Shown in pieces: positions 2,475-54,088 of a stretch of 64,000 nucleotides of DNA; the first letter of the stretch is position 1; every line of letters begins with the position of its first letter. The DNA is from a virus (taxonomy: Duplodnaviria > Caudoviricetes). The notes beneath the pieces were generated by a model. The model made no database searches. It was given only the letters and a program-made list of their open reading frames with translations, and had not been told where the DNA came from. The stretch lies in the IMG/VR virus record IMGVR_UViG_3300046167_000801. One strand, written 5' to 3'. A program made the translations under genes and the position numbers.

Positions 2475-2687
2475 ACCAATATCAATATAGATAATACTAT
2501 AGATGAAATAGATATAGTTATAGTATATGTTATTCTTAAAACTCATAGGTACTCTAATACTATTCTATATCATAATGAATAGATTCTTCAAATGGTTAGA
2601 TAAGTAGAAATACTCAAATACCATACGTACAAATTAAAAAGTATTATACGTACATACATATAGAATATAGATAAAGAACTATAGTAT

Positions 2688-3158
2688 ATGTATAAGAATA
2701 TAATCCCAACTCTCATAGTAATAATCTCTCTATTAGGTAATAGTCTATATAGTCAAATAGATTGTAGTCCCTATCATAAGATAAAGAACTACACTATTGA
2801 AGAAGGAGTAAAATATAAATTCTCTATAGGGTTATGTCATCATTACAATAGTGGTTCTGTAGACTTAGGTTATAAGAATCATTATGTAAGTCTTATCTCT
2901 ATGACAAGAAAAATATATAGTAGTATGATCCCTATGAATGATGAATTCTATATAGGGTATACGTATGATTATACTATAGGGAAAAAAGGAAATCATCACA
3001 TAGGTTCTACCCTCGCATTTCAGATCCATAATCATGAACCTGTAGTCAGATTCTATATAGATAAAAGAATCTATAAAAGGTTCTTCTTACATGGATCTTC
3101 TATACAGGTTTCTAATAGAATTAACCATTTGATAGGTGGTTTTAAGGTAGTAATATAG
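2688..3158 (+). CDS. secreted/outer-membrane beta-rich protein
   Basis: N-terminal signal peptide, alternating aromatic beta-strand pattern, C-terminal GGFKVVI. Confidence 0.45.
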   Translation: MYKNIIPTLIVIISLLGNSLYSQIDCSPYHKIKNYTIEEGVKYKFSIGLCHHYNSGSVDLGYKNHYVSLISMTRKIYSSMIPMNDEFYIGYTYDYTIGKKGNHHIGSTLAFQIHNHEPVVRFYIDKRIYKRFFLHGSSIQVSNRINHLIGGFKVVI

Positions 3159-3673
3159 TCATACAATTATACCCCCTGATAATCATTTCCAGACCCCCTA
3201 AGAACGTCATACATACTTTGACCGTTAAGTGTCCATAAGTCATACAATAGTGTCTTAAAACGTACCTATTAGGGTACATTTTTGTCGTAGTAAGTTTTTT
3301 AGGTCTCACTACCCCTGTAAACGGTACTTTTCTTAGGTACGTATATATAGGACCTCGTTTTTCCCACTTTCTACCACTTTCCTACACACCGTAGGGTATT
3401 GTGTCGTGTGCGACTCAAAGACACTTTTTCTAAAAATTTATAAATATGATACTGTTATATCGGTCATACACTCCTGAACCCCGTATAATAGTTAAGTCAT
3501 TATACTATAATATGTCATACATTATACCCCCACAATATAAGTGTTATATCGTTATACTCGGATGAGATGTCATACACCCGTATAATGAAAAAATCATAAT
3601 ACAAATCGGGATACCCCCACGGGTATATAATATTATAAATTGTATGACATTATACCCTGACGGGTGTCATACA
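3158..3673. repeat. iteron-like GTCATACA octamer cluster in noncoding zone
   Basis: Copies at 3158, 3206, 3239, 3463, 3514, 3569, 3641 (reverse), 3666; companion ATTATACCC at ~3166, 3521, 3649. Confidence 0.8.
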
Positions 3674-3731
3674 TTTATAGTCTGTGCCAATTAGAATTGT
3701 CCCTGATCAGGACGGTGAAGGGTCGAAATGT

Positions 3732-4402
3732 TTATAACGGTTTTGATCCGAGAATAGGACCCGAGTTTATTTGTGGACGAATCTTATAAGGTTTCATAGA
3801 CAACGCAATTAATGTACCTTTTGTTTCATCGTCTGTCTCAAACTCAAATTCAATCTCTAACTGTGCAACCGAAGAAATCTTTGGGAGTAACGTAAGTTCA
3901 ATATTAATATCCTTAACGTCATACATACGAGTAAGACCTTAACAATCTTGTGATCTCTCTTAAGTTTTGTCATACACTCTTCCTTAGTGGGAAGGTTGAT
4001 GTTCTTAATAGAACTATTCACTATAGTATCTATGTCATTGGTTGGGTCTTCAATGTCTATGACTTGAGATCTACCTGAGGTATTCTTTATGAAGTCCCCC
4101 GTTCTGCCAATTACTATTGTGGATCCTCCTCCTCTGAGTTCATCTTTTATTATTAGATGATTCAGTGATACGAATTCTTGTCCACTCTGTAGGTGTTCAC
4201 TTTTAATTTGGGTAAGTGATTCTGTTAATACTGTTTGTAGTATATCCCCGAATTTTGAAGTTAGTGTGTCGAGGTCACGAATGGTTACATCGATGTCTAA
4301 TAATAGAATGTCGTTGTATCCATAATAATGTGCGGAATAGGTGTAACCTTCTTTCTCGACATCCGCAATATACTTACTCTCATGTAAATCTAATAGTTTC
4401 AT
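3732..4402 (-). pseudogene. hypothetical protein probably split by a 1-bp frameshift (ORFs 3857..4402 and 3732..3926)
   Basis: Overlapping co-directional ORFs; adding one base near 3932 joins IVKVL to RMYDVKDINIEL. Confidence 0.45.
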
Positions 4403-4517
4403 ATGTATAATAAATATTCGGTTATGCCAAATAAAATCTGAGATGGGACCTGATCTGAGACTCGAACGTTTGCCAATTAAAATCGGGACCGTCGGTGATC
4501 AGGAATCTTGACTCTAT

Positions 4518-4551
4518 AAAAAAAGGGTCTACCTTTCGGATGACCCTCTTT
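4518..4551. terminator. intrinsic terminator hairpin
   Basis: AAAAAAAGGGTC..GACCCTCTTT stem with A/T tracts downstream of minus-strand gene. Confidence 0.7.
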
Positions 4552-4588
4552 AAAAAAAAAATAAATCAGATATTAGACAAAACGTTAG

Positions 4589-4783
4589 TTATGCCGCCGA
4601 TTTCTGTTTTAGTAACTGGTTTCTGAATTTGATTGCCTTTGCTTTGTTAGTAAAGTACTCATCGTAAGCCGTCCCTTTAATAGAAACTCTTACTCTGTAT
4701 CTGTTTCCAGAACCATTAGTTACTTGGTAAATGTTATTACCGAGGTTTGTGTAGCTGTAGCTACCAGTAGTTGACTTTGCCAT
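4589..4783 (-). CDS. small AP2-like DNA-binding protein
   Basis: NIYQ...RYRVRVSIKG...YFTNKAKAIKFRN resembles the AP2/integrase-type three-strand-helix fold. Confidence 0.5.
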   Translation of the reverse strand: MAKSTTGSYSYTNLGNNIYQVTNGSGNRYRVRVSIKGTAYDEYFTNKAKAIKFRNQLLKQKSAA

Positions 4784-5304
4784 ATTACTATTATTTAAAT
4801 GTTTATTACACTAAAGTATACGTAATATTATTTGTAAAGTCAACCCCCCATTGTATAAGATGGTCATCCTACATGTGCCATGATGTCAAAGAACTTTTTT
4901 GAAACCATTTTATAACCGATAAAATGTAATGTATTGTTTGCCAATTAAAATTGACCTCCCTTCACGGGATTCGAGTGGAAAAAAAAGATTAGAAGAGTTT
5001 CAGTATGAAGTGGATTAATATTGTTGCCACCAATATCATAAAACTCCAACCAATCATTTTGTAGGAGGTCTCCATTCTTTGAGGGGATCTACCCTGATTA
5101 CTTCTATACTGTCTAAACTTCTTTTCTTTTTCCATAATTTGTTGTTTTATTATTTAACTTTACTTATTTCCAATTGTCTTTGGAAGAAGTACATTAACTT
5201 CTCTTCAGCTCGTTTCATCTGAACTTCATCTTTTACTTTGGCTGCTGTATCCCACCTTTCCATCCAATAGGATATCTTAGGGAGGAAACCGTTCTTATAC
5301 TTTT

Positions 5305-5502
5305 TCATTGATTCTGTTTTAATAAATCATTAACTTCATCGGAGGTTATATCACTCACGTCGTAGTACCCTGCGATTTCGGTGAGATCTATGTCATCACC
5401 CTTTATCTCAATACCTTCTTGTAAGGTGGTACCATCTAAATCAAATACTGCATTTCTAACTTCTACTGTGCCATAATCTTTAGTTTCTACGGTTCTATTC
5501 AT
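5305..5502 (-). CDS. hypothetical protein
   Basis: ORF in minus-strand cassette, overlapping start/stop with neighbours. Confidence 0.6.
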   Translation of the reverse strand: MNRTVETKDYGTVEVRNAVFDLDGTTLQEGIEIKGDDIDLTEIAGYYDVSDITSDEVNDLLKQNQ

Positions 5503-5959
5503 TGATCTTATTTCTTAAAAATGTTTCTAAATCTAACTTGTTAACGAAGAGAGTCTTGTTTTCTATATAGACGTTCCCTTCGAATCCATCTATATTATGA
5601 TCTGCTATACCTTCCGCTACTGTCCAATATGGTTTCACCCGAGGATTATAAGAGATCCTTATACAGTCCTGCCGATTAAAATTCGACAGGTCCTGAGATC
5701 CTGAAGGAAAAGATATCCATGAACATACTGTTTTGTTGGATCCTCCATGAATCTTATTGGCAGTCTTCTGACTGTTATTAAGTTTACCATCTCTGATCGT
5801 GTATTGGAATTCAGCGGGGGAGAAGTACTCAAGTATACCTTCCACTTTATTCCTTAGTTGCCAATTCATGTAGTTCTTACCCTTGGCCAAATGGAACCTT
5901 AACCTATTGTTCTTAGGTAAGGTATCCATAAATCTCCATTCTTTCTCTATATTAATCAT
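5495..5959 (-). CDS. hypothetical phage protein
   Basis: 154-aa ORF, translationally coupled. Confidence 0.65.
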   Translation of the reverse strand: MINIEKEWRFMDTLPKNNRLRFHLAKGKNYMNWQLRNKVEGILEYFSPAEFQYTIRDGKLNNSQKTANKIHGGSNKTVCSWISFPSGSQDLSNFNRQDCIRISYNPRVKPYWTVAEGIADHNIDGFEGNVYIENKTLFVNKLDLETFLRNKINE

Positions 5960-6530
5960 AGTACCCCTCCTCTAAAAGTTCTTGTTCTTTTTCTTCTTCA
6001 CTCTGAAGAAAGGTTACTCTAATCCCGTGAACCATATCGTCCATCTTAGAAACCTCTAACTTGTACATACCATCTCCATAACCTGTTGATGATACAACTC
6101 CTGATTCGTAGGTACCCCACTGTTCTTCTCTTAAGGTACGGTCACACATTTTAACATACCATCCCTCACCTGTTTCTTTAGTTGGTCTGAAGGGGTGATC
6201 ACCAAACGGATCTCCCTTATCAGTTAACCATGGTAGATCTTTTGCTACCTCATCATTACGGTAGGATGTCATACAACAGATACTCATCTGTCCACTGTCA
6301 ACAGCAACACTACCAATGTCTTCCCATATAGGACTCTTTATGATTTCATGTAATACAGTGAGTGATGCAATTCTATCACCCCAATCACCTTCATCAGATT
6401 TTACCACCTGTGTGTCATACATACCAGGTCGCATATTATTAATTTGATTGTTGAACCATCCATCTACGTCACTGTAACATGGATCTGACACAATTACCTT
6501 TTCTCCTAACTTAATTTGATTTCCTTTCAT
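5952..6530 (-). CDS. DUF4241-like protein
   Basis: VSDPCY ... VAVDSGQMSI ... SSTGYGDGMY motifs. Confidence 0.6.
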   Translation of the reverse strand: MKGNQIKLGEKVIVSDPCYSDVDGWFNNQINNMRPGMYDTQVVKSDEGDWGDRIASLTVLHEIIKSPIWEDIGSVAVDSGQMSICCMTSYRNDEVAKDLPWLTDKGDPFGDHPFRPTKETGEGWYVKMCDRTLREEQWGTYESGVVSSTGYGDGMYKLEVSKMDDMVHGIRVTFLQSEEEKEQELLEEGYYD

Positions 6531-6766
6531 GATATTCCTCTTTTTGATTACTATACAAATATACTAGTATTTTTTAGAATATCACAACAAATACTAGTTT
6601 AAGTTTGCCAATTAGAATTGGACCCGGCGGCTGTGATCACCATCCCTTCGGCCAATGATAATAGTGCGGAGTTACACCACCACCTCTATATTGGTCATGC
6701 TCTCTACGTTCCTCTATGGAAACTTTTTTGGGGGAATTGATTTTTACGAACCTCCCTTTAGAATCT

Positions 6767-7078
6767 CTACCGTACTTCATAATCCATTACTTTATAGTTA
6801 ACTTCTAATAATTGGTCTAACATGTATGACATTGTTTCTACATCGATACCATTCATATCGAATTCAACGTCATCACCAATATAGTTTCTACCCGTTATCA
6901 TACCTTCTTCAGATATGCCAACTACAATCCACTCCTCAGGTCCCTTCTGTGTTTCCACATCTACTTTGAACATTCGGTCGAACTCAATCTCCATACCTCT
7001 CAATTCATCTTGGATGTATGTGATTGTTTTCTTTATTAGATTTTCCTTGTACTGTTTTGTTAATGTAATATATGACAT
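6767..7078 (-). CDS. hypothetical protein
   Basis: 103-aa acidic ORF in cassette. Confidence 0.6.
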   Translation of the reverse strand: MSYITLTKQYKENLIKKTITYIQDELRGMEIEFDRMFKVDVETQKGPEEWIVVGISEEGMITGRNYIGDDVEFDMNGIDVETMSYMLDQLLEVNYKVMDYEVR

Positions 7079-7114
7079 AATAGTCAGTTTAAATTAATAT
7101 TACCTACCGTAGAA

Positions 7115-7594
7115 CTAAACGTTGTTCATTAATTTGGTAAGTTCGTTGCGGTTTTCTGCAATTTGTTTGTCCATCGCAACTTGTATGGACCTCTTGGCCG
7201 ATTCCATAAATTGGATATCTTTCTCGAGTAAGTTTAAATCATCACCATCTTCAGATATTCTTCCGACAATGACTCTCACATCTTTAGTACTTGTTCCTTT
7301 TCTAAAGAATGGGGATCTTGCATATATATAATCCCCTCGTACTATAGATAGTTTAATCTCTTTAATGTTTTCCTTAGCTCTTAGTTGAAGAATAGTTTCC
7401 TCAAGTAAGGATACAGTTTCGAACTGCGTCTTCCACTTAGTGACGATATTTTTGTAGGTCCCCGTCATCTTGGACAGTACAGGTGACATTTTGATTGGCC
7501 CATCATTCAAGAATCTCTCAAACTCACTAAGTTGTTTGTTGGTACCAACGATCTCCGTAAAGACCCCATTCACATGTTTTAAATTTCTATTCAT
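7115..7594 (-). CDS. hypothetical protein
   Basis: 159-aa ORF in cassette. Confidence 0.65.
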   Translation of the reverse strand: MNRNLKHVNGVFTEIVGTNKQLSEFERFLNDGPIKMSPVLSKMTGTYKNIVTKWKTQFETVSLLEETILQLRAKENIKEIKLSIVRGDYIYARSPFFRKGTSTKDVRVIVGRISEDGDDLNLLEKDIQFMESAKRSIQVAMDKQIAENRNELTKLMNNV

Positions 7595-7673
7595 TTTTTC
7601 ATTGTTTTATATTGTTAATATTACTATTCACTGCCAATTACTATTGCTGAGCTCACCCTTCACCTTTTTGAAG

Positions 7674-8303
7674 TTAAGCTGAGGTCGTAGCAAGTTCTTT
7701 TTTTAATTCATCTACACATTCCATTATTTCTGATTCCTTAAGGAAATGGTAATTATCTTTTATTACTTCTACTAAGTCTTCACTTTTGTCTCCGTGTTCA
7801 AAATCATCTACAATATATTCTAACCCACTATTAATGAATTCTCTGTCGAACCATTCATCAAACCCTTCAAATTGGTAGATACCTTCTTGGTAATCATAAT
7901 CCTCTTCGTGGACATTACCAGATTGTATTGTTGCCTTTCCACAGAAGTCTGCGCCAGGTTCTTCGTAATACATCTTTACACTAACGTCATACATTGTGGA
8001 TAGAATTCTCATTCCCTCAATAGGTGGTGACCAAGCTGACTCAGTGTTAAGTACCATTGAATCCTTATCTACCACAATGTCATCATACGATATGTCCCAC
8101 TTAGTTCCATACCTTTCTATGTTATGATTATACCATCCCCCATTTTCCAAGGATTCGGTAGTTTCTTTCTCGTCCACACCAATTAGTGATTCAAAGAAGT
8201 TATCTTTTTTCTTGTTACTTGCAGCATCTAACATTGCTGACATTCTTTTGATGACCTTAGGTTCACCAAGTATTTCGATATTGTTGTAACACCAGTTTGG
8301 CAT
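7674..8303 (-). CDS. Api92/YubB-like ferredoxin-fold (DUF1281-related) protein
   Basis: MPNWCYN start, YGTKWD, TESAWSPP, YYEEPG motifs. Confidence 0.7.
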   Translation of the reverse strand: MPNWCYNNIEILGEPKVIKRMSAMLDAASNKKKDNFFESLIGVDEKETTESLENGGWYNHNIERYGTKWDISYDDIVVDKDSMVLNTESAWSPPIEGMRILSTMYDVSVKMYYEEPGADFCGKATIQSGNVHEEDYDYQEGIYQFEGFDEWFDREFINSGLEYIVDDFEHGDKSEDLVEVIKDNYHFLKESEIMECVDELKKELATTSA

Positions 8304-8351
8304 AATGATTATAATTTAATAGTTGTACAAAGATATAACATTTATTTTATT

Positions 8352-8762
8352 TTACCACCAGGAGCTGTAATAAACATCATACCCCTTTCTAATTGCAGTT
8401 AGAGATTCCTCTACAAATTGTAGGTCTTCTTCTCTATATTCTTCAGATGAGTCATCCCCGAAAATGAATCCACAGGTTTCAGGTAATGAACCATCTTTAA
8501 TATCCTTCTCAAGGTTCTCCAAATCCTCCCAAGTTAATTGAACATTTACACAATTAAATTCAGGTGACTCACCACCCTTCTCATAATAGAGTTCCCTCAT
8601 CCACCCTTGGAGATGGGGATGTTTTCTCCAGTAATGGAGTTCCTTCTTATCACACAGTATCTCGGTCTCTTTAGTTTCCTCGTTATACTGTTCTGTGTTA
8701 AAATCTACTGGTTCTTTTATGAACCCTTTTTTTACTCGGTATGCAAATTGGTCTAATCCCAT
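8352..8762 (-). CDS. conserved phage hypothetical protein (MGLDQ...YWRKHPHLQGW family)
   Basis: Recognisable phage family motif, C-terminal YYSSWW. Confidence 0.7.
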   Translation of the reverse strand: MGLDQFAYRVKKGFIKEPVDFNTEQYNEETKETEILCDKKELHYWRKHPHLQGWMRELYYEKGGESPEFNCVNVQLTWEDLENLEKDIKDGSLPETCGFIFGDDSSEEYREEDLQFVEESLTAIRKGYDVYYSSWW

Positions 8763-8989
8763 TGTTTATTCTTTATTGATTACTATACAAATATAAGGAT
8801 TATTTTGTTATACCCAATTACAAACGGATAAATTTCTTTGCCAAATAGAATACGTACTGGTCCGGCGCTGTGGCAAAACTGGTTTACCTGGCAGATCACC
8901 TGGCGAGTCTCCAGGTCAATTCTATTTGGCACATGCCAATTAAAAACAAACAGGTGATCTGCATGCATAATAATTTCACAAGCAGGCAT

Positions 8990-9018
8990 AAAAAAACCCC
9001 ACCATTTCTGATAGGGTT
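8990..9018. terminator. intrinsic terminator (near-identical copies at 10293-10323 and 15021-15054)
   Basis: AAAAAACCCC(C)ACCATTTCTGAT(A/G)AGGGT in three cassettes. Confidence 0.7.
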
Positions 9019-9043
9019 CATGAACTTTCTTTTTAGGTTTTTC

Positions 9044-9571
9044 TTAAGTGTGCATATCCACATACACTATATACCTTTTATTCGTTGGGTCGTCATCTTC
9101 TAATTGAGAGCCATCTAAATGTGTAACTCCACATTCCCCTAACTCCCAATCATAGTAGTAGTCTTGTAATACATCAAACTCTCGACCCTCTTTTTCTAAA
9201 CGGACTTTAGACATTTCGATTTGAAACATATCCTCACAGTATTTCTTGGCACCATACCAATCGAAAGGACTTTTATGTTTACCCTCACTACATTTGGTAA
9301 AGTTATCTTTATAGTAGTCATCTACTTTCATCCACTCACGAACTTGCCGATTAATATCCTCGACGGTGGTCCCTTCCTTAGGACACCACCTCGAATTACC
9401 CCATTCTTTTTCTTTGTCATACGTGGAATACACTTCGTTATCCGCACTGACACATCCACCAATGGTTCTCCAATTATTTTCAGTTCCCCATTCTGAGATT
9501 TCCGTTTCAACGGTATCACATGCCTCTTCGGGGGAAGAGGCAGTTACGATACAAAAATGTAGATTATGCAT
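9044..9571 (-). CDS. hypothetical protein
   Basis: 175-aa ORF coupled to upstream gene. Confidence 0.65.
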   Translation of the reverse strand: MHNLHFCIVTASSPEEACDTVETEISEWGTENNWRTIGGCVSADNEVYSTYDKEKEWGNSRWCPKEGTTVEDINRQVREWMKVDDYYKDNFTKCSEGKHKSPFDWYGAKKYCEDMFQIEMSKVRLEKEGREFDVLQDYYYDWELGECGVTHLDGSQLEDDDPTNKRYIVYVDMHT

Positions 9572-10043
9572 ATTTTTCTTTTTTCATTTTACAACCTTCC
9601 TCACCAAACAACTCTACTTTGAGTGCTTGTCGTTCTTCATTCCAATCGGAATGGTTACTACGTTTCCAATCGTCATAAAAGTTTTGTTTCCACCAACTAT
9701 CATCACATAGAGCTCTAATCACATCAAAAGATATGTCGGTAAAGTTTTCTTCACAGTAGGAATATAAATTCTCCTTACTGTTTTTCTTGGGTACGAATTT
9801 ACCCTCATCAGCATAATCTCCTGTAATTACAATGTTATCACCGGCCCAAGAACCAACGATTGGGTTTTCACTTCTCAAATCTCCACCCCCACGATTATTT
9901 CCGTCTGCCAATAAGATACCCAAACCTTGCATGACAGACATTCCGTCTGATGTAAATTCCATTAACTTTGCACCACTCCCAAAAGCGTGAGGGGTTAGTG
10001 TCTGTCCTTTTGTAGTGTTTACTACTTTAAAATACTGTCCCAT
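9564..10043 (-). CDS. conserved phage hypothetical protein (MGQYF family)
   Basis: MGQYFKVVN...GSWAGDNIVITGDYAD motif, promoter upstream. Confidence 0.65.
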   Translation of the reverse strand: MGQYFKVVNTTKGQTLTPHAFGSGAKLMEFTSDGMSVMQGLGILLADGNNRGGGDLRSENPIVGSWAGDNIVITGDYADEGKFVPKKNSKENLYSYCEENFTDISFDVIRALCDDSWWKQNFYDDWKRSNHSDWNEERQALKVELFGEEGCKMKKEKYA

Positions 10044-10395
10044 AATTAAAATGTTTAAATGTTATTAAATGATTACACTACAAATATAATAATATAAACG
10101 TTATCTACAAAACATTATGAGGTTTTTTATTTGCCAATTAAATTAAGGGATTAAACTGTGCAGTTACAGTGCACACATTTTACAGTTAATCGGAGAAATA
10201 TGCATGGATCCTGAACCCGGCCCGAATTTTAGTTGGCACGTGCCAAATAGAATTTACAGTGCATGATAACTATAGTCTACATTTTGTGCATTAAAAAACC
10301 CCCACCATTTCTGATGAGGGTCTTCGTAGTAATCACTTGTAACATATCATGAAATTACAAGACTACAAATGTAATACAATTATATTACATTATAC

Positions 10396-10590
10396 CTATA
10401 AGGTTACGTCGATTGATGCGTTGAAGTTGTTTTGTAATACATCGGGAGAGATGACTCTATTAATGGTGTTTGCAATTTTCTCGTACTCTGCGGGAGTAAC
10501 ACTCAAACCTTTAATGTGAATCTTTCCATCTAATACTCTAAACTTAACTCTAATTTTTTTCTTACTCATTTTTAATAACTGACTGAACAT
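10396..10590 (-). CDS. hypothetical protein (start probably MSKKK at ~10569)
   Basis: Short ORF in operon. Confidence 0.5.
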   Translation of the reverse strand: MFSQLLKMSKKKIRVKFRVLDGKIHIKGLSVTPAEYEKIANTINRVISPDVLQNNFNASIDVTL

Positions 10591-10759
10591 ATTCTAATTT
10601 GTTTATGGTGTCGACGTGTTGGGAACCCCTAAACCGATTTTGGGACTGAATGATGTTGACTATTACACCACCCGTTGGTGTATACCCCTCGGCAACATGA
10701 CCATTCACTTTTTCTGTTAGTCCTTGTGGACTTGAACTACTTAATACTTTATATTCCAT
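10562..10759 (-). CDS. small DUF1737-like protein
   Basis: MEYKVLSS....L...VN..VAEGYTPTGGV pattern. Confidence 0.5.
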   Translation of the reverse strand: MEYKVLSSSSPQGLTEKVNGHVAEGYTPTGGVIVNIIQSQNRFRGSQHVDTINKLEYVQSVIKNE

Positions 10760-10770
10760 GATATTGAATT

Positions 10771-10986
10771 TTATAAATAAAACTTATTCCATTGAGTATG
10801 AGCTTCATTCTCATATCTCCTTTCCTTGTCTACATTAACAAGAGTCTCTGTCTTCCTACATGTAGGACAAGCTTCAACTTCTTGTAGTTGTTTATCTTGA
10901 GGGTTGTGCCGATTACTTTCCAAGATGGTGATCACCTCCTCCGAAGTTCCTTCCCACATACAATTATAACATTCGTACTTATCCAT
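10771..10986 (-). CDS. small zinc-ribbon protein
   Basis: CYNC ... CPTC pairs. Confidence 0.55.
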   Translation of the reverse strand: MDKYECYNCMWEGTSEEVITILESNRHNPQDKQLQEVEACPTCRKTETLVNVDKERRYENEAHTQWNKFYL

Positions 10987-10988
10987 AA

Positions 10989-11261
10989 TTAAAATGTTAC
11001 TTTAGTTGATACCTCATTAACAATAGAATAGGATGACTTATTGATAGTCTCTTTTATTCTATTAGTAAATTCTTCTTTCGTTTCTTCCTCGTGAAGTTTG
11101 TCAATAGGTAAGGTGATACCTAAGTTGGATACTGCAAATGAAGTCCCACTCGAAGAGTGTCCTCCATACAATGAATACCTAATTGAACCTTCTGTTAACC
11201 TACAAACTAATGTTTTAGGGTTTCCGTAGACATCTTTAAGATGTAAATGTGATAATTTCAT
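10989..11261 (-). CDS. hypothetical protein
   Basis: 90-aa ORF downstream of promoter. Confidence 0.55.
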   Translation of the reverse strand: MKLSHLHLKDVYGNPKTLVCRLTEGSIRYSLYGGHSSSGTSFAVSNLGITLPIDKLHEEETKEEFTNRIKETINKSSYSIVNEVSTKVTF

Positions 11262-11435
11262 GATTACTTGTTTTATGATTACATTGTAAAGATACGAAAA
11301 TTATTGTATAAAACAAATACTTTTATACAAAAAACTAAATAAATTCCCGATTCTGGGTATCCCAGGAATGATTTTATTTGGCAGAGAGTGCCGATTAAAA
11401 TGTGAGATGGACGGTGAACCTTCGGGTGTAGACAT

Positions 11436-11463
11436 AAAAAAACCCCTTACATTGTAGGGGGTT
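11436..11463. terminator. intrinsic terminator (near-copy at 15812-15840)
   Basis: AAAAAAACCCCT(T)ACA(T/A)TGTAGGGGGT hairpin. Confidence 0.7.
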
Positions 11464-11488
11464 AGTTAAATTAAAAATAAAAGTTCTA

Positions 11489-11734
11489 CTATTCGTGTAT
11501 CTTATCTATTACACTTCTAAACTCATTCAACCTATCATTGTATTCCCAATAACATGTTCTTGGAAATTCAATTTTGTATTTCTTCTCGAACTTTGGTATG
11601 GTGGGATGTTTATAGTTACCTGAAAATATATGAGCGAATACTTCCACCATTTCGTCAGTCCATAATATTGTTTTTTTTTCCGTATTGAAAGTTGACACAT
11701 CCGGCGCCAATACCTTCTGATTATTTTTTATCAT
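11489..11734 (-). CDS. hypothetical protein, mosaic (N-terminus like 15860..16324, remainder paralogous to 11997..12314)
   Basis: VL.P.VSTFNT shared with 15860 ORF; WTDEMVEVF and FEKKYK shared with 11997 ORF. Confidence 0.6.
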   Translation of the reverse strand: MIKNNQKVLAPDVSTFNTEKKTILWTDEMVEVFAHIFSGNYKHPTIPKFEKKYKIEFPRTCYWEYNDRLNEFRSVIDKIHE

Positions 11735-11996
11735 ACTCTAAAGATAAAACAATTATATTATTATACCAAATAAACCTTTGCCAAATAAAATACGGATACG
11801 TCTTCAGGATCACCAACAGTTCATCCTGATCTGAACCGTGGCCCGGGTAACATTCTATTTGGCGTTGTAATATACATGCCAACTAAAATCGGGGCGACAA
11901 GGTTGTCGACTTCACCTTCACATATAAAAAAACCCCCACTAACTAAAGTGAGGGTATTTGTTAATTTACCAAATTAACAACCAAACAAAACACAAA

Positions 11997-12314
11997 TTAT
12001 ACTTCTACCATATTACTAAAATCTCTACGTATATCTATGGGAACTTCAAAAGTTCTATCATCCTTTTTCCATATCTCAACTTCCCCACAATATTTTTCTT
12101 CTAAGAATTCTAAACCTAAGGAATTTCTTTCTCTATACATCTTACGTATTACATACTTAAAGTTCCCCATTTTTTCGTTCATCTTCTTACCCACAAAGTC
12201 GTCATAGTTAAATTTAACTTTGTATTTCTTTTCAAACTCTCGTACACATCCTGCACTAAAGTTACTTGAATATACTTGAGTGAATACTTCCACCATTTCA
12301 TCAGTCCATTCCAT
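11997..12314 (-). CDS. hypothetical protein
   Basis: MEWTDEMVEVF paralog. Confidence 0.6.
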   Translation of the reverse strand: MEWTDEMVEVFTQVYSSNFSAGCVREFEKKYKVKFNYDDFVGKKMNEKMGNFKYVIRKMYRERNSLGLEFLEEKYCGEVEIWKKDDRTFEVPIDIRRDFSNMVEV

Positions 12315-12316
12315 AA

Positions 12317-12550
12317 TTAATCAGTTACATAAATTACATCCGACGTTTTTTCATCTTGGTAGTACATCGACCCACCATCGTTACCCTCATCATCTGACTG
12401 AGGAATCAAGATTGTCCCATCAGTAAATTTTATTACTACGGGTCTCTTATACCACATAAGGTTTTCCATATCCTTATCTCCCAACCAAGTTACTTCCTTG
12501 ATTGTTTTACCTTTAAGGTACTTGTTGAATTGTTTTAAATGTTTATCCAT
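12317..12550 (-). CDS. hypothetical protein
   Basis: LKGKTIKEV...DDEGNDGG phage-type small protein. Confidence 0.6.
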   Translation of the reverse strand: MDKHLKQFNKYLKGKTIKEVTWLGDKDMENLMWYKRPVVIKFTDGTILIPQSDDEGNDGGSMYYQDEKTSDVIYVTD

Positions 12551-12555
12551 GACTT

Positions 12556-12798
12556 TTAGTTTATATCATTAGTGTTACACAATATTACATTTCCGACGAT
12601 TGGGTGTCCACACATACCCGTAGCTTCGTGATTTAAAGGTAGTCTATGTATTAGACCTTCTTCATTCACGATTAAAACTCTACCTTCGTTTATGTGAACT
12701 AACTCTATAAGTCCACCGACTAACTCTTGTTTTCTTTTAAGAGTGTCAATGTTTACGTTTACTTCTCGTGTTCCATCCGTTTTTAATAATGTTGCCAT
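12556..12798 (-). CDS. DUF3846 family protein
   Basis: QELVGGLIELV...LIVNEEG..LPLN.EAT....IVGNVIL. Confidence 0.75.
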   Translation of the reverse strand: MATLLKTDGTREVNVNIDTLKRKQELVGGLIELVHINEGRVLIVNEEGLIHRLPLNHEATGMCGHPIVGNVILCNTNDIN

Positions 12799-13260
12799 CT
12801 GACTAATGATTTATGATTACTATACAAAGATATAAAAATTATCTTATTATACAAATTTATTTACTTTCTTTTCTGCCATTTAAAATTTGGGATCTCTTCA
12901 GGATCTCCTCTTTGAATTCTTCTACCATACATTCTTCATCTATAACAATCCTATCTTCCTCATCAAAGAAATAGTAGATTGGAATTGTGATGGGTTTGTA
13001 TTCCGTTTGTTTATTAGTTGTTTCTTCCATAATACAAATATAACAATATAATGTGTATCAACCAAACATTAATAGGTTTTTCTTTCTCCCCCGACGTCTG
13101 TGTGGCCCGGGTAACATTCTATTCGGCATTGTAATACACATGCCAATTAAAATTGCCCAGTTTGTGCTGTCCAAATCCCAATATATTTTATTGTTTTGTC
13201 AACCTCATCGCATAAAAAAACCCCTACTAAAAGTAGAGGTTATTTGTGTGGTGTATTACA

Positions 13261-13485
13261 TTATCTATAAAGAGTCACATAATCTCCGAATTCACTATCG
13301 AAATAATTAACTAAGTTGTCATAGTCTCCCGATGTCATACGTTTGATGTTACTTTCAACATCTTCTTTAGTGTGTCCTAATTGTTTCCACAATTTCTTAG
13401 CTGTGCCGATTAAATAAAACGCATTTCCCTGTGGTCCCGTTAAATCGATTACGATTCCGTTTTGTTTTGGTTTATCTACTATCAT
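13261..13485 (-). CDS. conserved phage hypothetical protein
   Basis: IDLTGPQGNAFYLIG...MTSGDYDNL motif. Confidence 0.65.
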   Translation of the reverse strand: MIVDKPKQNGIVIDLTGPQGNAFYLIGTAKKLWKQLGHTKEDVESNIKRMTSGDYDNLVNYFDSEFGDYVTLYR

Positions 13486-13799
13486 TATCTTTTATTTAAA
13501 TTATCTAATTTAATCCAACCTTCCTTTATTCCTTTTCTACATTCCGCTACACCGAATCCTAAGAATTCATTTCTGTATTTACTTGTAGTCCTTGAATAAT
13601 CCCAATAGTTCTCATCAAAAACATATTGAGGTCTTTTAACACCTTGGATGTCATATCTCTTGTCTGTCTTGTAACAAATCTTTGTACCATACGAAACGAA
13701 CATCGATCCGTTATCATCTGATAAAATTTGTTGATTTGCGAGAGGGTTTCCACCTCTTGATTGCATCGGCTCTAACGATACGAATTTCATTATTCTCAT
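13485..13799 (-). CDS. conserved phage hypothetical protein
   Basis: FVSYGTKI...WDYSRTTSKYRNEFLG motif. Confidence 0.65.
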   Translation of the reverse strand: MRIMKFVSLEPMQSRGGNPLANQQILSDDNGSMFVSYGTKICYKTDKRYDIQGVKRPQYVFDENYWDYSRTTSKYRNEFLGFGVAECRKGIKEGWIKLDNLNKR

Positions 13800-13915
13800 G
13801 ATTACTGTTTTTATTGATTACTAATACTCAAATATAACACTTTTTTTATTATAACCAACATAAAAAGATAACTTTGTTTGCCGATTAAAATACGGGATGG
13901 GCCCTGAACCTTCCG

Positions 13916-14137
13916 TTACAAAATCTGTTCTTGAAGTTCCTTTACCAAATCTTTAACTTGGGATTGTGTAAGTTGTACGTGTGCGAACATACGATTATGG
14001 TCTACATCGGGGTCGATATTCATTTGAACCATAATACCATTCTCCCCACCACTAAAACGAGTTAATTTGATTTCACTTTCCTTATTACCAAATTCGGTTT
14101 CTTTCCGACACTTGATTGATTTCAATTCTGTTGACAT
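13916..14137 (-). CDS. hypothetical protein
   Basis: 73-aa ORF with own promoter. Confidence 0.55.
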   Translation of the reverse strand: MSTELKSIKCRKETEFGNKESEIKLTRFSGGENGIMVQMNIDPDVDHNRMFAHVQLTQSQVKDLVKELQEQIL

Positions 14138-14553
14138 AATTTCTATTGTTTAGATTATAAAGATATAACAAATAATTGGTTATACCAAATCTAAGATTGC
14201 CAAATAGAATTAATTTATACCATCCGGGTGTTTTTGCCAGGTAAACCAGTTTTGCCACAGCGCTGGACCAGCAGGTGATTTTAATTGGCGAGATCGATAG
14301 GCAAAAGAAAAGGGGTTACTTACCACGGTAACCCCCTTTTTACTTTCACATTTAAGTTGTAAACCAACCATATCTTGTTTAACAACATGACAAATATATT
14401 AAACAAACACGTATTCAACAAGTTAAAGATTGTTATTTTAATGTTAATAGAGGTGCCAATTAAAATTACCTCCAGTGCTGTGCAACTTCATTACACACCT
14501 GGCATAAAAAAAACCCCTACGTTAATAAGGGTTTTTGGTTAGTGTGTGAAAGT

Positions 14554-14835
14554 TCAAGGGGGTGAAGTCAAACTATATCTGTTTAAGTGGTAAAGTTCAA
14601 AATCGATAAACCCAAGTTTATCTACGATATACTGACCTACACAATTGGTTTCTTGTAATACATTTTCGTAGGACTTACCTAATGTACGTTTACAAAATTT
14701 CTTTAAGTTCCGAATTACAAATCGGTGGGGTACGTTTCCGTTATCCTTAATGGTTAATACCCATTTGTCGGATGTTTTAGTTAAATAACCTTTCATGATA
14801 TAAAGTTTTATGATTACCCTACTAATGTAATACAA
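14554..14835 (-). CDS. hypothetical protein (start probably MKGYL at ~14796)
   Basis: Short ORF between terminator and promoter. Confidence 0.5.
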   Translation of the reverse strand: MYYISRVIIKLYIMKGYLTKTSDKWVLTIKDNGNVPHRFVIRNLKKFCKRTLGKSYENVLQETNCVGQYIVDKLGFIDFELYHLNRYSLTSPP

Positions 14836-15070
14836 TATTTCGATATAACCAAATTAATATAATATTTATTTTGTTGAGTCGGAGTGACGGTGGTGATCAA
14901 GAAATTTTATTTGGCAATGTAAAACGAACTGAAGGTTCGTACGTCCTTGCGTTTCTATTTGGCAGATGCCAATTAAAATACGATTCACCATGTGTATTCT
15001 TCTTGGAAAAAAGTTAGACAAAAAAAAACCCCCACCATTTCTGATGAGGGTTTCTTCGACTAAAACAAAA

Positions 15071-15556
15071 TTAAACTACTTCATATCTAACTCCTTTGTA
15101 AGAAATCTTTTTGATGTTGTCCGTTCTCATTGTGAAAACTTGTACCTCTCTCTCGTTGTAGGTTGGTAAGAAAGGTTGGATAACTTGTTTTTCAATAGTT
15201 TCTCCGTTGTGAATGTACTCGTTACGGATTGACTGATTTTCAAAAGTTTCATACATAAAGTATGTGTTGTCGTTGTTTCGGTGTTTAACTACACAAGGAC
15301 TGATGTGTTCAAACCAATTTGGTTTACTCTCAAACTCTTGATTGTTAGTTTTTTTCTTCATACGATTTTCGTAATCGGGTAAACAACGAACATTTTTACT
15401 TGACTTTTTTACTACTGAATTGTAGTAGGGGTTGTTTGTCTTTTTCATTTTTACATTTGTAACACTCTCGATGTTTACAAATTCCCCTTTTTCGACTTGT
15501 TGTAAGATATTGACTAAAGTATCTTTGTCAATTCTTTGTGGTGTTTGATTTTTCAT
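15071..15556 (-). CDS. hypothetical protein
   Basis: 161-aa ORF with own promoter and terminator. Confidence 0.65.
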   Translation of the reverse strand: MKNQTPQRIDKDTLVNILQQVEKGEFVNIESVTNVKMKKTNNPYYNSVVKKSSKNVRCLPDYENRMKKKTNNQEFESKPNWFEHISPCVVKHRNNDNTYFMYETFENQSIRNEYIHNGETIEKQVIQPFLPTYNEREVQVFTMRTDNIKKISYKGVRYEVV

Positions 15557-15859
15557 ATCCGATGAAATTTAAATGATTAATAATACTCAAATATAATACT
15601 ATTACTATTATAAACCAAACATTTAGTAAAAAACTTTGAACTTTGTTTGCCGATTAAAATGTGGGATACGTCACACGGGACACGAACTTTTTTCTAATGT
15701 TCCAAATTTTTCATCAACTTTTTTTGGATACGGGTGATCCAGTTCCTATTCTAATTGGCGAGTGCCAAACAAAATGTTACATGGGCCCTGATGGAGGTTG
15801 AGTGTGGATATAAAAAAACCCCTACAATGTAGGGGGTGTTAAATTAAAAAAAATAAAGT

Positions 15860-16324
15860 TTACAAGTTCAGTGACTGAAGATGTTTTAGTCTCGCGTTGT
15901 ATTCATCCTCATCGTAATAATCTTCATCATCATCATCATCATCCTCGATCATCATTTCTAAACCACTAATTACTTCTTTACCCTTTTCATTGATTATGGT
16001 AAATCTATAAGATGGCCCATCCAAATCGGGGGAAGCATGATGAAAAGTAACTTGAATCAGATTATTCTCACACACTAAAGTGAAATAAGTTCTACAATCA
16101 TCATTAATAAAATCTTGTATAGAATTAATTTCTCCCATGATTTTATCACAAATAGAGTCCCAGTCTTTAGACCAATCTAATTCTGATGATTCTGTTCCCT
16201 CAAAATAGTCAATTTCCAAATCTTCAAAATCTCCTTGATTGAAACCAGCGTTAAACTCCGTTTTTGTTTTCGTATTGAAAGTTGACACACCGGGTGTCAA
16301 TACTCTCGGTTTATTGATATACAT
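15860..16324 (-). CDS. acidic hypothetical protein
   Basis: D/E-rich C-terminus; leader shared with 11489 ORF. Confidence 0.6.
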   Translation of the reverse strand: MYINKPRVLTPGVSTFNTKTKTEFNAGFNQGDFEDLEIDYFEGTESSELDWSKDWDSICDKIMGEINSIQDFINDDCRTYFTLVCENNLIQVTFHHASPDLDGPSYRFTIINEKGKEVISGLEMMIEDDDDDDEDYYDEDEYNARLKHLQSLNL

Positions 16325-16702
16325 ACCCTAAAGATAAAACAATTATATCATTATACCAAATAAACTTTTGCCAAATAGAATACCAAATCCTGAGATGGTA
16401 ACTTCGACTCTATACCTCAAGAGGAAGGTTATGTTACGACGTGCACCTTCAAACATTTTAATTGGCGAGATCTTGCCAAATAGAATAACCGAAGACTTTC
16501 CCGCGGGAGGAAGGGTTAGTGCATAAAAAAACCCTAACTAATTAAAGTGAGGGTTGTTGTTCTTGATTAGTGTTTCTTTATATATCCCAAATGATACCTA
16601 CTGAAAACCTAATTACAAAATAAGAGAAAGATAAAATAATGATTCCATATTGTAGACGTTCTCCATTTTTACTATCTAACCATTTAAAAAACTTTTCCAT
16701 AA

Positions 16703-16882
16703 TTAAAGTTTTATAAAGTTAGACCTTAACTTATTGATGTTCTTCATAATGAAACTATGAACTCCCATTACAATAACATAACTGACAACTGAAACGAAAC
16801 CGATTAAACAAGTTGCCCAAAAACCGAACAACAATGTCATTCCTACATCCATTCCACTAATAACGTTTAATAAATTTTCCAT
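16703..16882 (-). CDS. small membrane protein (59 aa, below ORF-track cutoff)
   Basis: Translated by hand: MENLLNVISGMDVGMTLLFGFWATCLIGFVSVVSYVIVMGVHSF..., promoter at 16926. Confidence 0.5.
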   Translation of the reverse strand: MENLLNVISGMDVGMTLLFGFWATCLIGFVSVVSYVIVMGVHSFIMKNINKLRSNFIKL

Positions 16883-17198
16883 GATACTTTTTTTTTGTTT
16901 TGTTTATTACTAATTGATTACATAACAAATATAATAATAATTCTATTATATACAATACTTTATTACAAGTTTGTTTGCCAATTAAATTAAGGGATTAAAC
17001 TGTGCAGTTACAGTGCACACATTCAGCAGTTTCTTTGAGCGCTAGATGAGCGCAACAGCAGGTGGATTTTAATTGGCGGGATCGTGCCAAATAGATTAAG
17101 GGAGGATGCATGTAAACTTCGGGGGGAATTATTACAAAACAAAAAACCCCACCTCAATTAAGAGATAGGGTTTATCCATTGTTATCAGTAATCAACAA

Positions 17199-18023
17199 CT
17201 AAACACGAATGAATATCTTCTTGTCGTTTCGACGTTTATAATTATAGATATCCTCAATCATTCTAACATAATCAGATTGATTACCACAAATCTTGAAATA
17301 GTGGGGAATGATTTCAGATTTCTTTATGAACTCATTTGTATTAAACTCATTCTCATACTTGTTTAACACACTTAACATACTACGTACAAAAATAGTACGT
17401 GAATATCCTTCGGGGAAAAACTTTTGTAGTGAAGTTATAAACTCTCCCCATTGTACCGCTTTACTATAACTACTTATCTTGAATTGACCATTGTTGAATT
17501 GGTCTTTACGAGTGTTAGTAAAAGTACCATTGGTTAAAAGGAACATACTATCAGTTAAACTAAAATGGGGGAATACCTCCATATATTGTTTCAACTTAAT
17601 ATAGTTACGATTACCTTTAGATACATAGAACTCCAAGAAATCTCTACGTGACCAAGAGGCTGAATTGGTATTAGACCTAATTACCTCTTTTTCTCCATAG
17701 TTGTTTACTTGAAGATAGTAAATACCTTTACCACTCATCTTACTCGCGTGGTATCGGTGTTGTCCGTCAATAATTTCCATTTTCTTATTGACTACGATAG
17801 GATTTACAAGAAGTCCCTCATTGGACATACTCTCATAAATTTTCTTAACTCGACTCATATTAACTGGTCGGTTGTTTTCCATTAACTTGAACATATCCAA
17901 GTTAGTTGTGTACTTGACAGTCATGTCACTTTTCGGTTTCATTGTTCTACTCGACATAATAAAGTTGTTCGGTATTATCTCCCCGTCCTCGGTTTTAGTT
18001 ATTGATTGAGTACAAACATACAA
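17199..18023 (-). CDS. ParB/Srx N-terminal-domain protein
   Basis: NRPVN...V..I..SM...GLL.NPIVVN...EIIDGQHR.HA motif. Confidence 0.75.
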   Translation of the reverse strand: MYVCTQSITKTEDGEIIPNNFIMSSRTMKPKSDMTVKYTTNLDMFKLMENNRPVNMSRVKKIYESMSNEGLLVNPIVVNKKMEIIDGQHRYHASKMSGKGIYYLQVNNYGEKEVIRSNTNSASWSRRDFLEFYVSKGNRNYIKLKQYMEVFPHFSLTDSMFLLTNGTFTNTRKDQFNNGQFKISSYSKAVQWGEFITSLQKFFPEGYSRTIFVRSMLSVLNKYENEFNTNEFIKKSEIIPHYFKICGNQSDYVRMIEDIYNYKRRNDKKIFIRV

Positions 18024-18205
18024 ATACTTTTTTTAATATCCAAATATAATTGTAAATACTTTTTATTATTCCGCCAAATAGATTTTAAAATGAAGAGATC
18101 CTCAAGTAGAAGTTATGATCAGGATCCTGAGGTGAATCAAACTTTAGTTGGCACCACACCCTATGATCACAGACGACGGTGGGACCTGTTGTATTTTATT
18201 TGGCA

Positions 18206-18360
18206 CCCTCCCCACTATATAGGGGTATGGGGGGACCCCCCTGCAGTACCCCCTCCGGTATCCCCCCTTTAAAAAGGGGTTTTTCGGTGTCTGTACAGGG
18301 GGCTCAATGCCCCGTCCCGGATTTTTCCGGAATTTTTTGGAAAATTCGGTTTTTTTTTCG
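18206..18360. other. GC-rich homopolymer/palindrome zone at strand switch
   Basis: GGGGGGACCCCCC, CCCCCC/GGGG runs, CCGGATTTTTCCGG, followed by long T and A tracts. Confidence 0.6.
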
Positions 18361-18379: not shown

Positions 18380-19507
18380 ATGTATAAAAATACAAAAATT
18401 CATAGAATAGATCACGAAAAAATAATAGAACGTTATAAAGAACTTGGAAGTGCAAAAAAGACCGCGTTGGAATTCGGTTTATCAGGACCGACAGTTTTAA
18501 AAATTATTAGATTACATGGTGTTGAGGTTAACCGTGAATTTAAAAAATATAGTGATGAATATGTTATATCCAAATATTACGAATTTGGAACTGCGGAGAA
18601 AACGGGTATTGAGTTGGGAATGGGGGACCAAAGGCTACGTGACATATTGGACAGAAATAACATCAAGAGAAAAACAATAAAACACGTATCAGTCGGAGAT
18701 GTGTTCAATAAGTTAACTGTGATAGAATTTGTGGGTTATCGTGGTACGAAAAATAAACATAGGGTATTCTTATGTAAATGTGAGTGTGGGGGTACAAGAA
18801 AGGTTGACACTCGTAAATTAACTACTTCACAAAAACCCATAAAAGACTGTGGATGTGGGTGGAAATTAAAAAGAGAAAGGGCGGAGTTAAAACGTAAGGA
18901 AAAAGAACGAGCAAGACAACTACGGTTAGAAAAACGTATCGAACGTGAATTAAAAAATAAACTCAAACGTAAAAAATACGAATCCAATAAAAAATATAAA
19001 GTAGGGTCTAAACATAATAGATTAACCATTATATCTGTAGTTGGTAAAGGTGAAAATAAGGTTCTTACTGTGGAGTGTGAATGTGGGACAATTAAAGATA
19101 TTAAAAAACATTCAATTTATACCACAAAATCTTGTGGGTGTCTCCAAAAAGAAAGATCTACAACCCATGGTATGGTATCTAAAGATAGAAAGAAATATGA
19201 TAGGTGGAGATCAATGATTAGCAGATGTCATAATCCAAAATCTAAATCATATCATAACTATGGGGGTCGTGGAATATATGTGTGTGATAGATGGAGATTA
19301 CCAAATGGTGAGGGATGTAGAAACTATTTAAGGGACATTAAAAAACATTTAGGACCCAAACCCGAAGGTAATTATTCTTTAGATCGTATAGATAATGATG
19401 GTCCTTATGAGATTACTAACTTGAGGTGGGCAGATGCGTCAACTCAAACGAAAAACCAAAGAAGATTTGCAAAGGTTGATAAAGACCAATGTAAAATAGA
19501 TTTTTAG
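18380..19507 (+). CDS. HNH homing endonuclease with repeated N-terminal DNA-binding modules
   Basis: Two LT.I....CxCECG...SCGC modules; WRSMISRC.NP...Y..YGGRGI.VC.RW ... LDRIDNDG.Y...NLRWA. Confidence 0.85.
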   Translation: MYKNTKIHRIDHEKIIERYKELGSAKKTALEFGLSGPTVLKIIRLHGVEVNREFKKYSDEYVISKYYEFGTAEKTGIELGMGDQRLRDILDRNNIKRKTIKHVSVGDVFNKLTVIEFVGYRGTKNKHRVFLCKCECGGTRKVDTRKLTTSQKPIKDCGCGWKLKRERAELKRKEKERARQLRLEKRIERELKNKLKRKKYESNKKYKVGSKHNRLTIISVVGKGENKVLTVECECGTIKDIKKHSIYTTKSCGCLQKERSTTHGMVSKDRKKYDRWRSMISRCHNPKSKSYHNYGGRGIYVCDRWRLPNGEGCRNYLRDIKKHLGPKPEGNYSLDRIDNDGPYEITNLRWADASTQTKNQRRFAKVDKDQCKIDF

Positions 19508-52234: not shown

Positions 52235-52257
52235 TGAGGATCCCTTTTCACACTTAG

Positions 52258-54072: not shown

Positions 54073-54088
54073 TTTATTTAACACTTTG

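Follow-up and report, generated by a model that had tools for sequence, protein, structure and literature searches.

The stretch analyzed here, called the window, is 64 kilobases (kb) of DNA from a tailed phage (Caudoviricetes; IMG/VR record IMGVR_UViG_3300046167_000801), and the element of interest is a motif of 13 base pairs (bp), TGCCRAWTARAAT, termed the “arm,” that recurs throughout one block of early genes. Exact copies number 23 in the 64-kb window (positions are window coordinates throughout), all of them within 3685-18205, against a chance expectation of 0.02. When up to one mismatch is allowed, there are 38 copies within the block and two elsewhere, at 33654 and 39372; these two lie in coding DNA, lack the GC-rich flank described below, and are most likely chance matches. 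The initial annotation of this DNA had counted about 38 copies confined to the block, which holds. It had also placed every copy between genes, which does not, as one exact arm (5670) and two near copies (9345 and 12874) sit within real coding sequence.

The early-gene block

The phage is an uncultured marine jumbo phage, and the block is its hyperplastic early region, with promoters of the Bacteroidota type (TTTG / TAnnTTTG). It comprises 10.5 kb of coding and 4.0 kb of intergenic DNA and is organized in cassettes, each made of a promoter, one to four small open reading frames (ORFs), and an intrinsic terminator, with one to four arm modules between a terminator and the following promoter. 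Most of the genes have no Pfam or PHROG family. The search of cultured phages by BLASTN gave no match, the nearest cultured matches of one early gene are Flavobacterium phages, and the hosts of the phage are Flavobacteria-like. At least 13 studies have seawater metagenomes in which the phage occurs nearly unchanged.

Relatives with an early block include L037 (a 78-kb IMG/VR contig), L077-80 (ENA contigs of the L037 type), L076 (a closer lineage), and L081 and L082 (more distant). The interior of the block differs far more among relatives than its surroundings do, with protein identities of 30-96% against 92% nucleotide identity in the flank. Rather than being spread evenly, the arms keep to the early block in the window and in the L037 contig, where 33 of 33 arms (at most one mismatch) fall within 2388-16786; in L076, too, they end at the block border. 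The block and its borders are the following:

3685-18205, minus strand: hyperplastic early-gene block with about 33 small minus-strand ORFs and about 46 arms (at most two mismatches, GGC core)

3685-3697, minus strand: arm that borders the block on its downstream side; the flank outside it is 92% identical to L037, the interior far more diverged

18072-18205, minus strand: upstream border unit with inverted arms at 18193-18205 and 18141-18153 and a promoter-proximal arm at 18072-18084; L037 homology ends exactly at the arm at 18193

Anatomy of the arm modules

The ORFs of the block lie on the minus strand, and all of its intergenic regions were printed in gene orientation to read the order of the units; so read, an arm has the sequence ATTYTAWTYGGCA. 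Combined in a logo, 89 arms taken from the window and the relative nearest to it give a 13-nucleotide (nt) core with an invariant GGC. Beyond the GGCA side of the arm there is no conservation, and beyond the AT-rich side there are about 20-25 nt at 50-69% GC, also without sequence conservation. In gene direction, a full unit consists of an intrinsic terminator, a GC-rich leader of 35-45 nt, an arm, 2-12 nt, an inverted arm, a spacer of 56-87 nt, an arm, and the promoter. The promoter-proximal arm lies about 42 nt from the promoter and is followed by an AT-rich stretch ending in TATATTTG or TATCTTTG and then by the gene. The same order had been annotated at six loci and in truncated forms, and it is correct once read on the minus (gene) strand. 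Truncated units occur at 14198, 18072, and elsewhere, and the six full units head this list:

8839-8946, minus strand: full unit with arm, 2 nt, inverted arm, 67-nt spacer, and arm; −7 box 43 nt downstream; 37 nt of the spacer are common to unit 14198, inverted and in the same register

10132-10253, minus strand: full unit with 2-nt gap and 81-nt spacer, whose 3' 35 nt are identical to unit 16976

11779-11889, minus strand: full unit with 12-nt gap containing TGTATATTACAA and 60-nt spacer

15648-15775, minus strand: full unit with 2-nt gap and 87-nt spacer; the arm at 15763-15775 forms one edge of the indel that involves cassette 15860-16324

16369-16486, minus strand: full unit with 6-nt gap and 73-nt spacer, 98% identical in L076; its arm at 16369-16381 is the other edge of the 15860-16324 indel and an edge of the opposite-strand joint to 18206 (run X10)

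16976-17097, minus strand: full unit with 6-nt gap and 77-nt spacer; −7 box 42 nt downstream

14198-14290, minus strand: truncated unit with inverted arm, 67-nt spacer, and arm

13116-13153, minus strand: abutting arm pair with the 12-nt gap TGTGTATTACAA

11371-11401, minus strand: abutting arm pair with 5-nt gap, downstream of a terminator; L037 homology ends at its edge

14904-14979, minus strand: arm cluster of arm, 2 nt, inverted arm, 35 nt, and second inverted arm

8985-9016, minus strand: one copy of a repeated intrinsic terminator, with more copies near 10288-10321 and 15014-15051 and in L037

5670-5762, minus strand: arm-like pair in ORF 5495-5959, native coding sequence; an in-frame insertion was ruled out by the family alignment, in which this is the most conserved stretch of the protein

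The spacers had been described as GC-rich. Their mean GC content is only 36-58%, and the enrichment really resides in the roughly 25 nt adjoining the AT-rich end of each arm. These flanks are also rich in GATC. Within 35 nt on the AT-rich side, the word occurs beside 18 of 46, 21 of 46, 15 of 41, 14 of 26, and 7 of 7 arms in five loci, and composition-matched shuffles of those loci give means of 5.4, 5.0, 4.9, 3.1, and 0.9, an enrichment of 3-8 fold. At the scale of the window, GATC is neither enriched nor depleted (197 observed, 199 expected), the excess being confined to the arm flanks. Comparison with L076 shows the spacers of the window to be mosaics in which one half is conserved and the other abruptly replaced. 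This means that a spacer is two flanks back to back, and that the basic element is one arm with its flank. The true module is therefore a single arm with a flank of about 25 nt that is GC-rich and enriched in GATC but otherwise unconserved, some 40-50 bp in total.

Such modules occur in three arrangements: solo, with arms abutting (gaps of 1-14 nt, 2 nt being the commonest), or with flanks abutting (spacers of 44-89 nt, among which 67 nt recurs four times). Of all arms, two thirds are oriented antisense to the early genes. Pieces of spacer are common to different sites and are inverted in three of four cases.

The spacers gave no match in tRNA, transfer-messenger RNA (tmRNA), and Rfam scans. 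An attC hairpin was considered and set aside: single-stranded folds of eight units gave z scores of +1.3 to −3.4, with pairing mostly between arms and no self-complementarity in the spacers. A palindrome of the repetitive extragenic palindromic (REP) or REPIN kind was likewise discarded, the minimum free energy of the 35-nt flanks averaging about −2.5 kcal/mol and their z score −0.2 to −0.9. REPs are stable palindromes mobilized by RAYT transposases. The modules share with REPs, REPINs, and bacterial interspersed mosaic elements an extragenic position past terminators, alternating orientation, GC-richness, and a copy number that varies per locus, but their flanks fold weakly, and there was no sign of a RAYT.

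The near-palindrome TGTATTACA is a second motif that keeps to the block, with eight of eight exact copies in the window falling in the early block (6349, 9165, 10370, 10433, 13130, 13252, 14654, and 14826). It fills the 12-nt gaps of abutting arms at 11865-11876 and 13129-13140 and sits inside some promoters. In the distant phage L016 it follows many arms, along with TGTCATAC. The motif may be the operator of a second regulator.

Arms and early promoters

Read at the motif level, TAnnTTTG −7 boxes with an upstream TTTG or TTGG stand before the cassette genes; TAnnTTTG with an upstream TTTG is the Bacteroidota housekeeping promoter. G/C hairpins followed by T-runs come after most cassettes, 100-250 nt upstream of the next promoter, and the arm modules lie in between. 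Distances from arm to −7 box peak at 23-25, 32, 41-44 (21 cases), and 51-52 nt in four lineages. In distant lineages the peaks are at 13-16, 30-32, 40-43, and 50-54 nt, and the opposite arm orientation has no such peaks. No conservation is seen in the DNA that separates arm from promoter. That the peaks are about 10 bp apart points to a need for one face of the helix, as for an upstream regulator or an upstream (UP)-like site. The distance to the core promoter is thus phased and orientation dependent, which is the in silico signature of an upstream promoter element or class I site. Promoter-proximal arms include the following:

6606-6618, minus strand: solo arm, 42 nt upstream of the −7 box

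13879-13891, minus strand: arm 42 nt from the −7 box

12874-12886, minus strand: arm 41 nt from the −7 box

14198, 11779, and 16369, minus strand: arms 32 nt from the −7 box

Like class I activator sites and UP elements, these arms lie upstream of a promoter at steps of about 10 bp. The difference is that many arms are not promoter-proximal and that the specificity switches between phage lineages. The word TTGGCA was also considered as a sigma54-like or −35-like element, and inspection of the sequence gave no consistent −12 or −10 partner.

The initial annotation expected the elements to be untranscribed. In its favor, though weakly, no contig listed from the two RNA runs spans a full unit, gaps between contigs being no evidence of silence; against it, several solo arms lie within transcribed stretches covered by RNA-run contigs. 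The bins 9913-10413 and 11416-11916 have no contig cover in either RNA run, and this gap, too, is no evidence of silence.

Could the arms be transcription signals in their own right? They might be promoters or elements for phage-directed (middle or anti-early) transcription into the GC-rich flank, yielding upstream leaders or antisense RNAs that shut off the early genes. A short conserved motif followed by a variable GC-rich stretch does resemble a promoter with its initially transcribed region, and the lineage-specific specificity and the antisense majority of arms would suit this role. However, no listed RNA-run contig starts at or covers full units (a weak point, as it comes from contigs only), across lineages the AT-rich half shows no conserved −10-like word, and the phasing ties the GGCA side of the arm to the host-type promoter and ties nothing to the flank side. 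This explanation is improbable.

A lineage-specific switch in the arm

In L081 and L082, every arm is TTTTTATCCGCA-like, with TYCGCA in place of TYGGCA, so that the core GGCA has become CGCA; arms of the CGCA type are absent from the window. The architecture is nevertheless kept at orthologous positions, with terminator, leader, arm pair, spacer, arm, about 40 nt, and promoter in that order, and the orthologous sites include the border arm before the conserved hairpin and the unit upstream of a 136-amino-acid gene. This concerted change argues for one trans-acting reader.

Distant jumbo-phage contigs, fetched through the ParB-like gene described below, carry 10-31 related arms (ATATTGTTTGGCA, TAGTTTGGCAA, and similar) with GC-rich flanks, and in some of them arm pairs abut with a 2-nt gap. 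In about twenty loci fetched in this way, TTGGCA occurs at 3.5-7 times expectation. A scan of IMG/VR for the abutting-arm pattern found one contig with multiple matches, and the other 35 contigs had single chance matches. The arm element is old, widespread in the phage clade, and lineage-specific in sequence, for which trans-acting recognition is the simplest explanation. As a separate observation, a C5 DNA methylase gene is inserted in the early block of L081 (8248-9300 of that contig), and two arm-like sites with GATC-rich flanks lie within its coding sequence.

Cassette gain, loss, and relocation

The window and L037 do not have their genes in the same order. The ParB-like cassette heads the block in the window and lies between the homologues of genes 10396 and 15860 in L037; gene 10989 adjoins gene 9564 in L037, and a three-gene cassette lies between them in the window. 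BLAST homology between the two stops 0-4 nt from arm edges in both genomes, at window positions 18192, 16484, 13887, 11371, 10226, and 3697. Both outer borders of the block are arms, and beyond them the identity to L037 climbs to 92% and 82%.

Cassettes are also gained and lost. Cassette 15860-16324 is present in the window and absent in L076, where a single arm stands at the junction, flanked on one side by the spacer that begins at 16382 in the window and on the other by the arm at 15760. Cassette 11489-11734, the gene after unit 11779, is missing in L076 as well; here, the left break comes directly after arm 11779 and the other falls in the loop of a terminator. Upstream of gene 13916 (the 14198 locus), one terminator and one promoter are common to the window, L076, and L037, and the modules between the two are arranged differently in each. 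The modules at this locus are replaced rather than absent among lineages, and no target duplication is seen.

Assembled contigs from two DNA and two RNA seawater runs, aligned to the block, supply variant joints at low depth. One joins 16369 to 18206 on opposite strands with arm edges at both ends (run X10). Another, 15775 to 16499, has an arm edge on one side and loses the cassette that is also absent in L076, and a third, 13225 to 14553, lies within terminators. Since the first of these matches the fixed arrangement of L037, it may reflect a co-occurring strain and not a flip, and the seawater variant joints in general may come from co-occurring strains. No back-joint was reported among the assembled contigs of these public runs. 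The joints 8703 to 17820 and 4713 to 17875 in run X4 were too short or unclear for interpretation. In addition, an RNA-run contig (X16) lacks 41 nt at 4895-4935, just downstream of the arm at 4939-4951, which is probably a strain variant. Repeated terminators, such as the one at 8985-9016, are a second class of recombination joint.

The initial annotation had proposed a cassette array shuffled among relatives and had compared it with the PeSLs of T4-type phages. The shuffling stands, as gain, loss, and relocation with breaks at arm edges, where the low-depth variant contigs also join, and the parallel is apt. PeSLs are repeated promoter/stem-loop motifs in hyperplastic early regions, upstream of orphan ORFs (ORFans), and where related phages differ by an indel or a replacement, the breakpoints fall in them (Arbiol et al. 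2010, PMC2839356; Comeau et al. 2014, PMC4122927). As described, their promoter is of the sigma70 type, the region upstream of it is AT-rich, and the stem-loop lies in the promoter or beside it (PMC2839356; PMC4122927). The present system agrees with them in its repeated promoter and terminator motifs, in their concentration in an ORFan-rich, hyperplastic early region, and in the fall of indel and replacement breakpoints between relatives within the repeats. It differs in having a separate 13-bp arm, inverted arm pairs, and variable spacers rich in GC and GATC, none of which belongs to the PeSLs as described. Other differences are the distance of 100-250 bp between terminator and promoter, filled by arm modules, the Bacteroidota host, and the −33/−7 promoters. 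The system is thus PeSL-like shuffling plus a distinct module, a 13-bp arm with a GC- and GATC-rich flank in alternating orientations, with which PeSLs are not described.

Two kinds of mobile DNA offer other accounts of the same modules. They could be miniature transposable element ends mobilized by a transposase encoded elsewhere in the phage, with the abutting pairs corresponding to the circle or dimer junctions of insertion sequences (ISs). The inverted 13-bp arms with TG...CA termini, enclosing 44-89 bp and four times exactly 67 bp, fit this idea, as do the prevalence of the 2-bp gap in abutting pairs and the spacer pieces common to sites in either orientation. IS10 and IS50 have Dam-sensitive GATC sites next to their ends, and GATC is enriched 3-8 fold beside the arms. 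The differing number and orientation of modules in three lineages between one terminator and one promoter would fit as well. Yet neither the window nor the fetched flanks contain a transposase gene, target-site duplications are not evident, and the apparent in-gene unit at 5670-5762 is not an insertion. Moreover, the orthologous arms of L081 changed in concert and not through new insertions, and a fixed, phased distance to the promoter is unexpected of selfish insertions. Transposable ends are accordingly possible but doubtful.

Alternatively, the arms could be the core sites of a dedicated site-specific recombination system of the shufflon, inverton, or integron kind, inverting spacers and moving cassettes. 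Against such a system stand the lack of a recombinase in the window or flanks, gaps in abutting pairs that range over 1-14 bp, the absence of an attC-like hairpin (most stability comes from the arms alone), and the match of the opposite-strand joint to the fixed arrangement of L037; spacers of 44-89 bp are also very short for intramolecular inversion. What speaks for it is that abutting 13-bp inverted arms with a 2-bp center resemble serine-recombinase crossover sites, that one 67-nt spacer is found in either orientation without a change of register, that one cassette indel lies between two direct arms, and that the opposite-strand joint from seawater falls exactly at two arms. The likeness to integron attC and shufflon or hix sites extends to a cassette array with short inverted repeats around variable DNA; unlike in those systems, the window encodes no integrase or invertase, and the cassettes carry their own promoters and terminators. 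On balance, a dedicated site-specific system is unlikely.

The search for an arm reader

One early gene of the block bears on the question of a reader:

17199-18023, minus strand: ParB/GmrSD_N-like early gene, in a cassette placed differently in L037

Genes of this ParB_N/GmrSD_N-like type lie inside the block in the window, L037, and L081, with Pfam matches under the curated cut-offs. The arms could be loading sites of this protein, comparable to parS or to KorB operators, through which it would silence or organize the early region. Besides the presence of the gene in three blocks, the palindromes formed by paired arms would suit such a role, and all of the TTGGCA-rich distant loci were fetched through the ParB-like gene, an association that is confounded because the gene was the means of selection. 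The variable gaps do not suit a fixed dimer operator. Protein identity, furthermore, fails to track arm specificity: it is 77% between the window and L081, which have different arms, and 52% between the window and L037, which have common arms. Without this co-variation, the ParB-like protein is unlikely to be the arm reader, and this account as a whole is very improbable.

A host factor was considered by counting arms in 301 Bacteroidia genomes. Each contains between 0 and 13, only mildly above a reversed control, and none reaches phage-like density, so a broad host regulon is unlikely and a small one possible; no claim here draws on the unpublished genomes G183 and G097. A ClpC-like gene was uninformative as a clue to the host, and no link was found to a paper on RNA-guided transcription by dCas12f that had been taken up as a lead.

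What the arms may do

There is about an even chance that the arms are half-sites of a DNA-binding protein that acts on the early promoters and that they double as recombination joints, like the PeSLs of T4. The protein, sequence-specific and encoded by phage or host, would bind the arm as its half-site and would act on early promoters from a helically phased upstream position, as at a class I activator or repressor site or a UP-like element. Binding is suggested by the helical phasing to promoters together with the concerted arm change in one lineage. The general recombination of the phage would then join cassettes at the arms, because, in intergenic DNA that evolves fast, only the arms form conserved islands, and PeSL-like modular shuffling would follow without a dedicated recombinase. 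The joints are as well explained by ordinary phage recombination at short conserved islands as by a dedicated recombinase.

Several observations weigh against this reading. No arm-binding protein was found, and the only DNA-related early gene in the block is the ParB-like one, whose identity does not follow arm specificity. Many arms, for example in abutting pairs just past terminators, are 100-170 nt away from any promoter, and no arm accompanies promoter 8335 or, in L076, promoter 13916. Breakpoints fall in terminators and at gene borders too, and since all arms are alike, the extension of BLAST matches cannot place a break to one side of an arm. The relatives are all metagenome contigs, and the variant joints rest on assembled contigs of low depth. 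Finally, the GC-rich, GATC-enriched flank and its rapid, patchy turnover are not accounted for by any of the models tested.

A more far-reaching possibility is that the modules are the cis sites of an active, phage-encoded rearrangement system that continually swaps and inverts GC-rich segments of 30-90 bp as well as whole early cassettes. Such a system might be transposase-derived or act through nuclease-initiated gene conversion, possibly gated by GATC methylation. It has a small chance of being correct and, if true, would serve a wide clade of Bacteroidota jumbo phages as a dedicated generator of diversity in their host-takeover genes.

As for the preferred reading of arms as half-sites and recombination joints, its two parts had been joined in the initial annotation as a protein-bound, recombination-competent module system. 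Cassette shuffling at the arms bears out the second part, nothing points to a dedicated recombinase, and the binding of a protein is predicted from the sequence. The annotation had itself noted that no recombinase is encoded in the window, and neither the window nor the fetched flanks have a recombinase or transposase gene. For its other suggestion, a landing zone on first-injected DNA, there is nothing in support.

Neighboring sequences and genes

Directly after the downstream border arm, 3560-3684 holds several copies of GTATGACA and TGTCATAC that form hairpins around GGGTATAAT and are kept in L037, L076, and L082. Just past the upstream border, 18206-18340 has 54% GC, with runs of five to seven G and five to seven C (GGGGGG..CCCCCC), and is 82% conserved in L037. 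An HNH endonuclease gene (phrog_374) abuts the block at 18380-19507 on the plus strand, exactly between sequences that are adjacent in L037, and is therefore a lineage-specific mobile insertion at the block edge. The conserved flank on the other side encodes a T5orf172/MUG113 (GIY-YIG-like) domain protein at 1529-2227 on the plus strand.

Elsewhere in the window, the phage encodes a tmRNA (52257-52640, minus strand; tag peptide VDSKVAVA) and four tRNAs at 53996-54805 on the minus strand (Met, Arg-TCT, Leu-TAA, and Glu). A sugar-related cluster at 38833-44083 contains an N-acetylglucosamine (GlcNAc)-type glycosyltransferase (38833-40086), an HtrL_YibB/DUF3431 protein (41626-43008), and a uridine diphosphate (UDP)-galactopyranose mutase-like protein (42965-44083). 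A GT25-family glycosyltransferase lies apart from this cluster, at 19584-20504.

Significance

Early ORFan regions hold the genes for host takeover and anti-defense, and their turnover is little known outside the enterobacterial T4 group. The arm is a sharply defined, searchable cis-element that marks the early regions of an uncultured clade of marine and freshwater Bacteroidota jumbo phages, and natural cassette exchanges at the arms are available as examples. The switch from GGCA to CGCA is a ready-made control for finding the binding factor. The arm may also be the first upstream regulatory element for early promoters of Bacteroidota phages, whose promoter architecture differs from the Escherichia coli paradigm.

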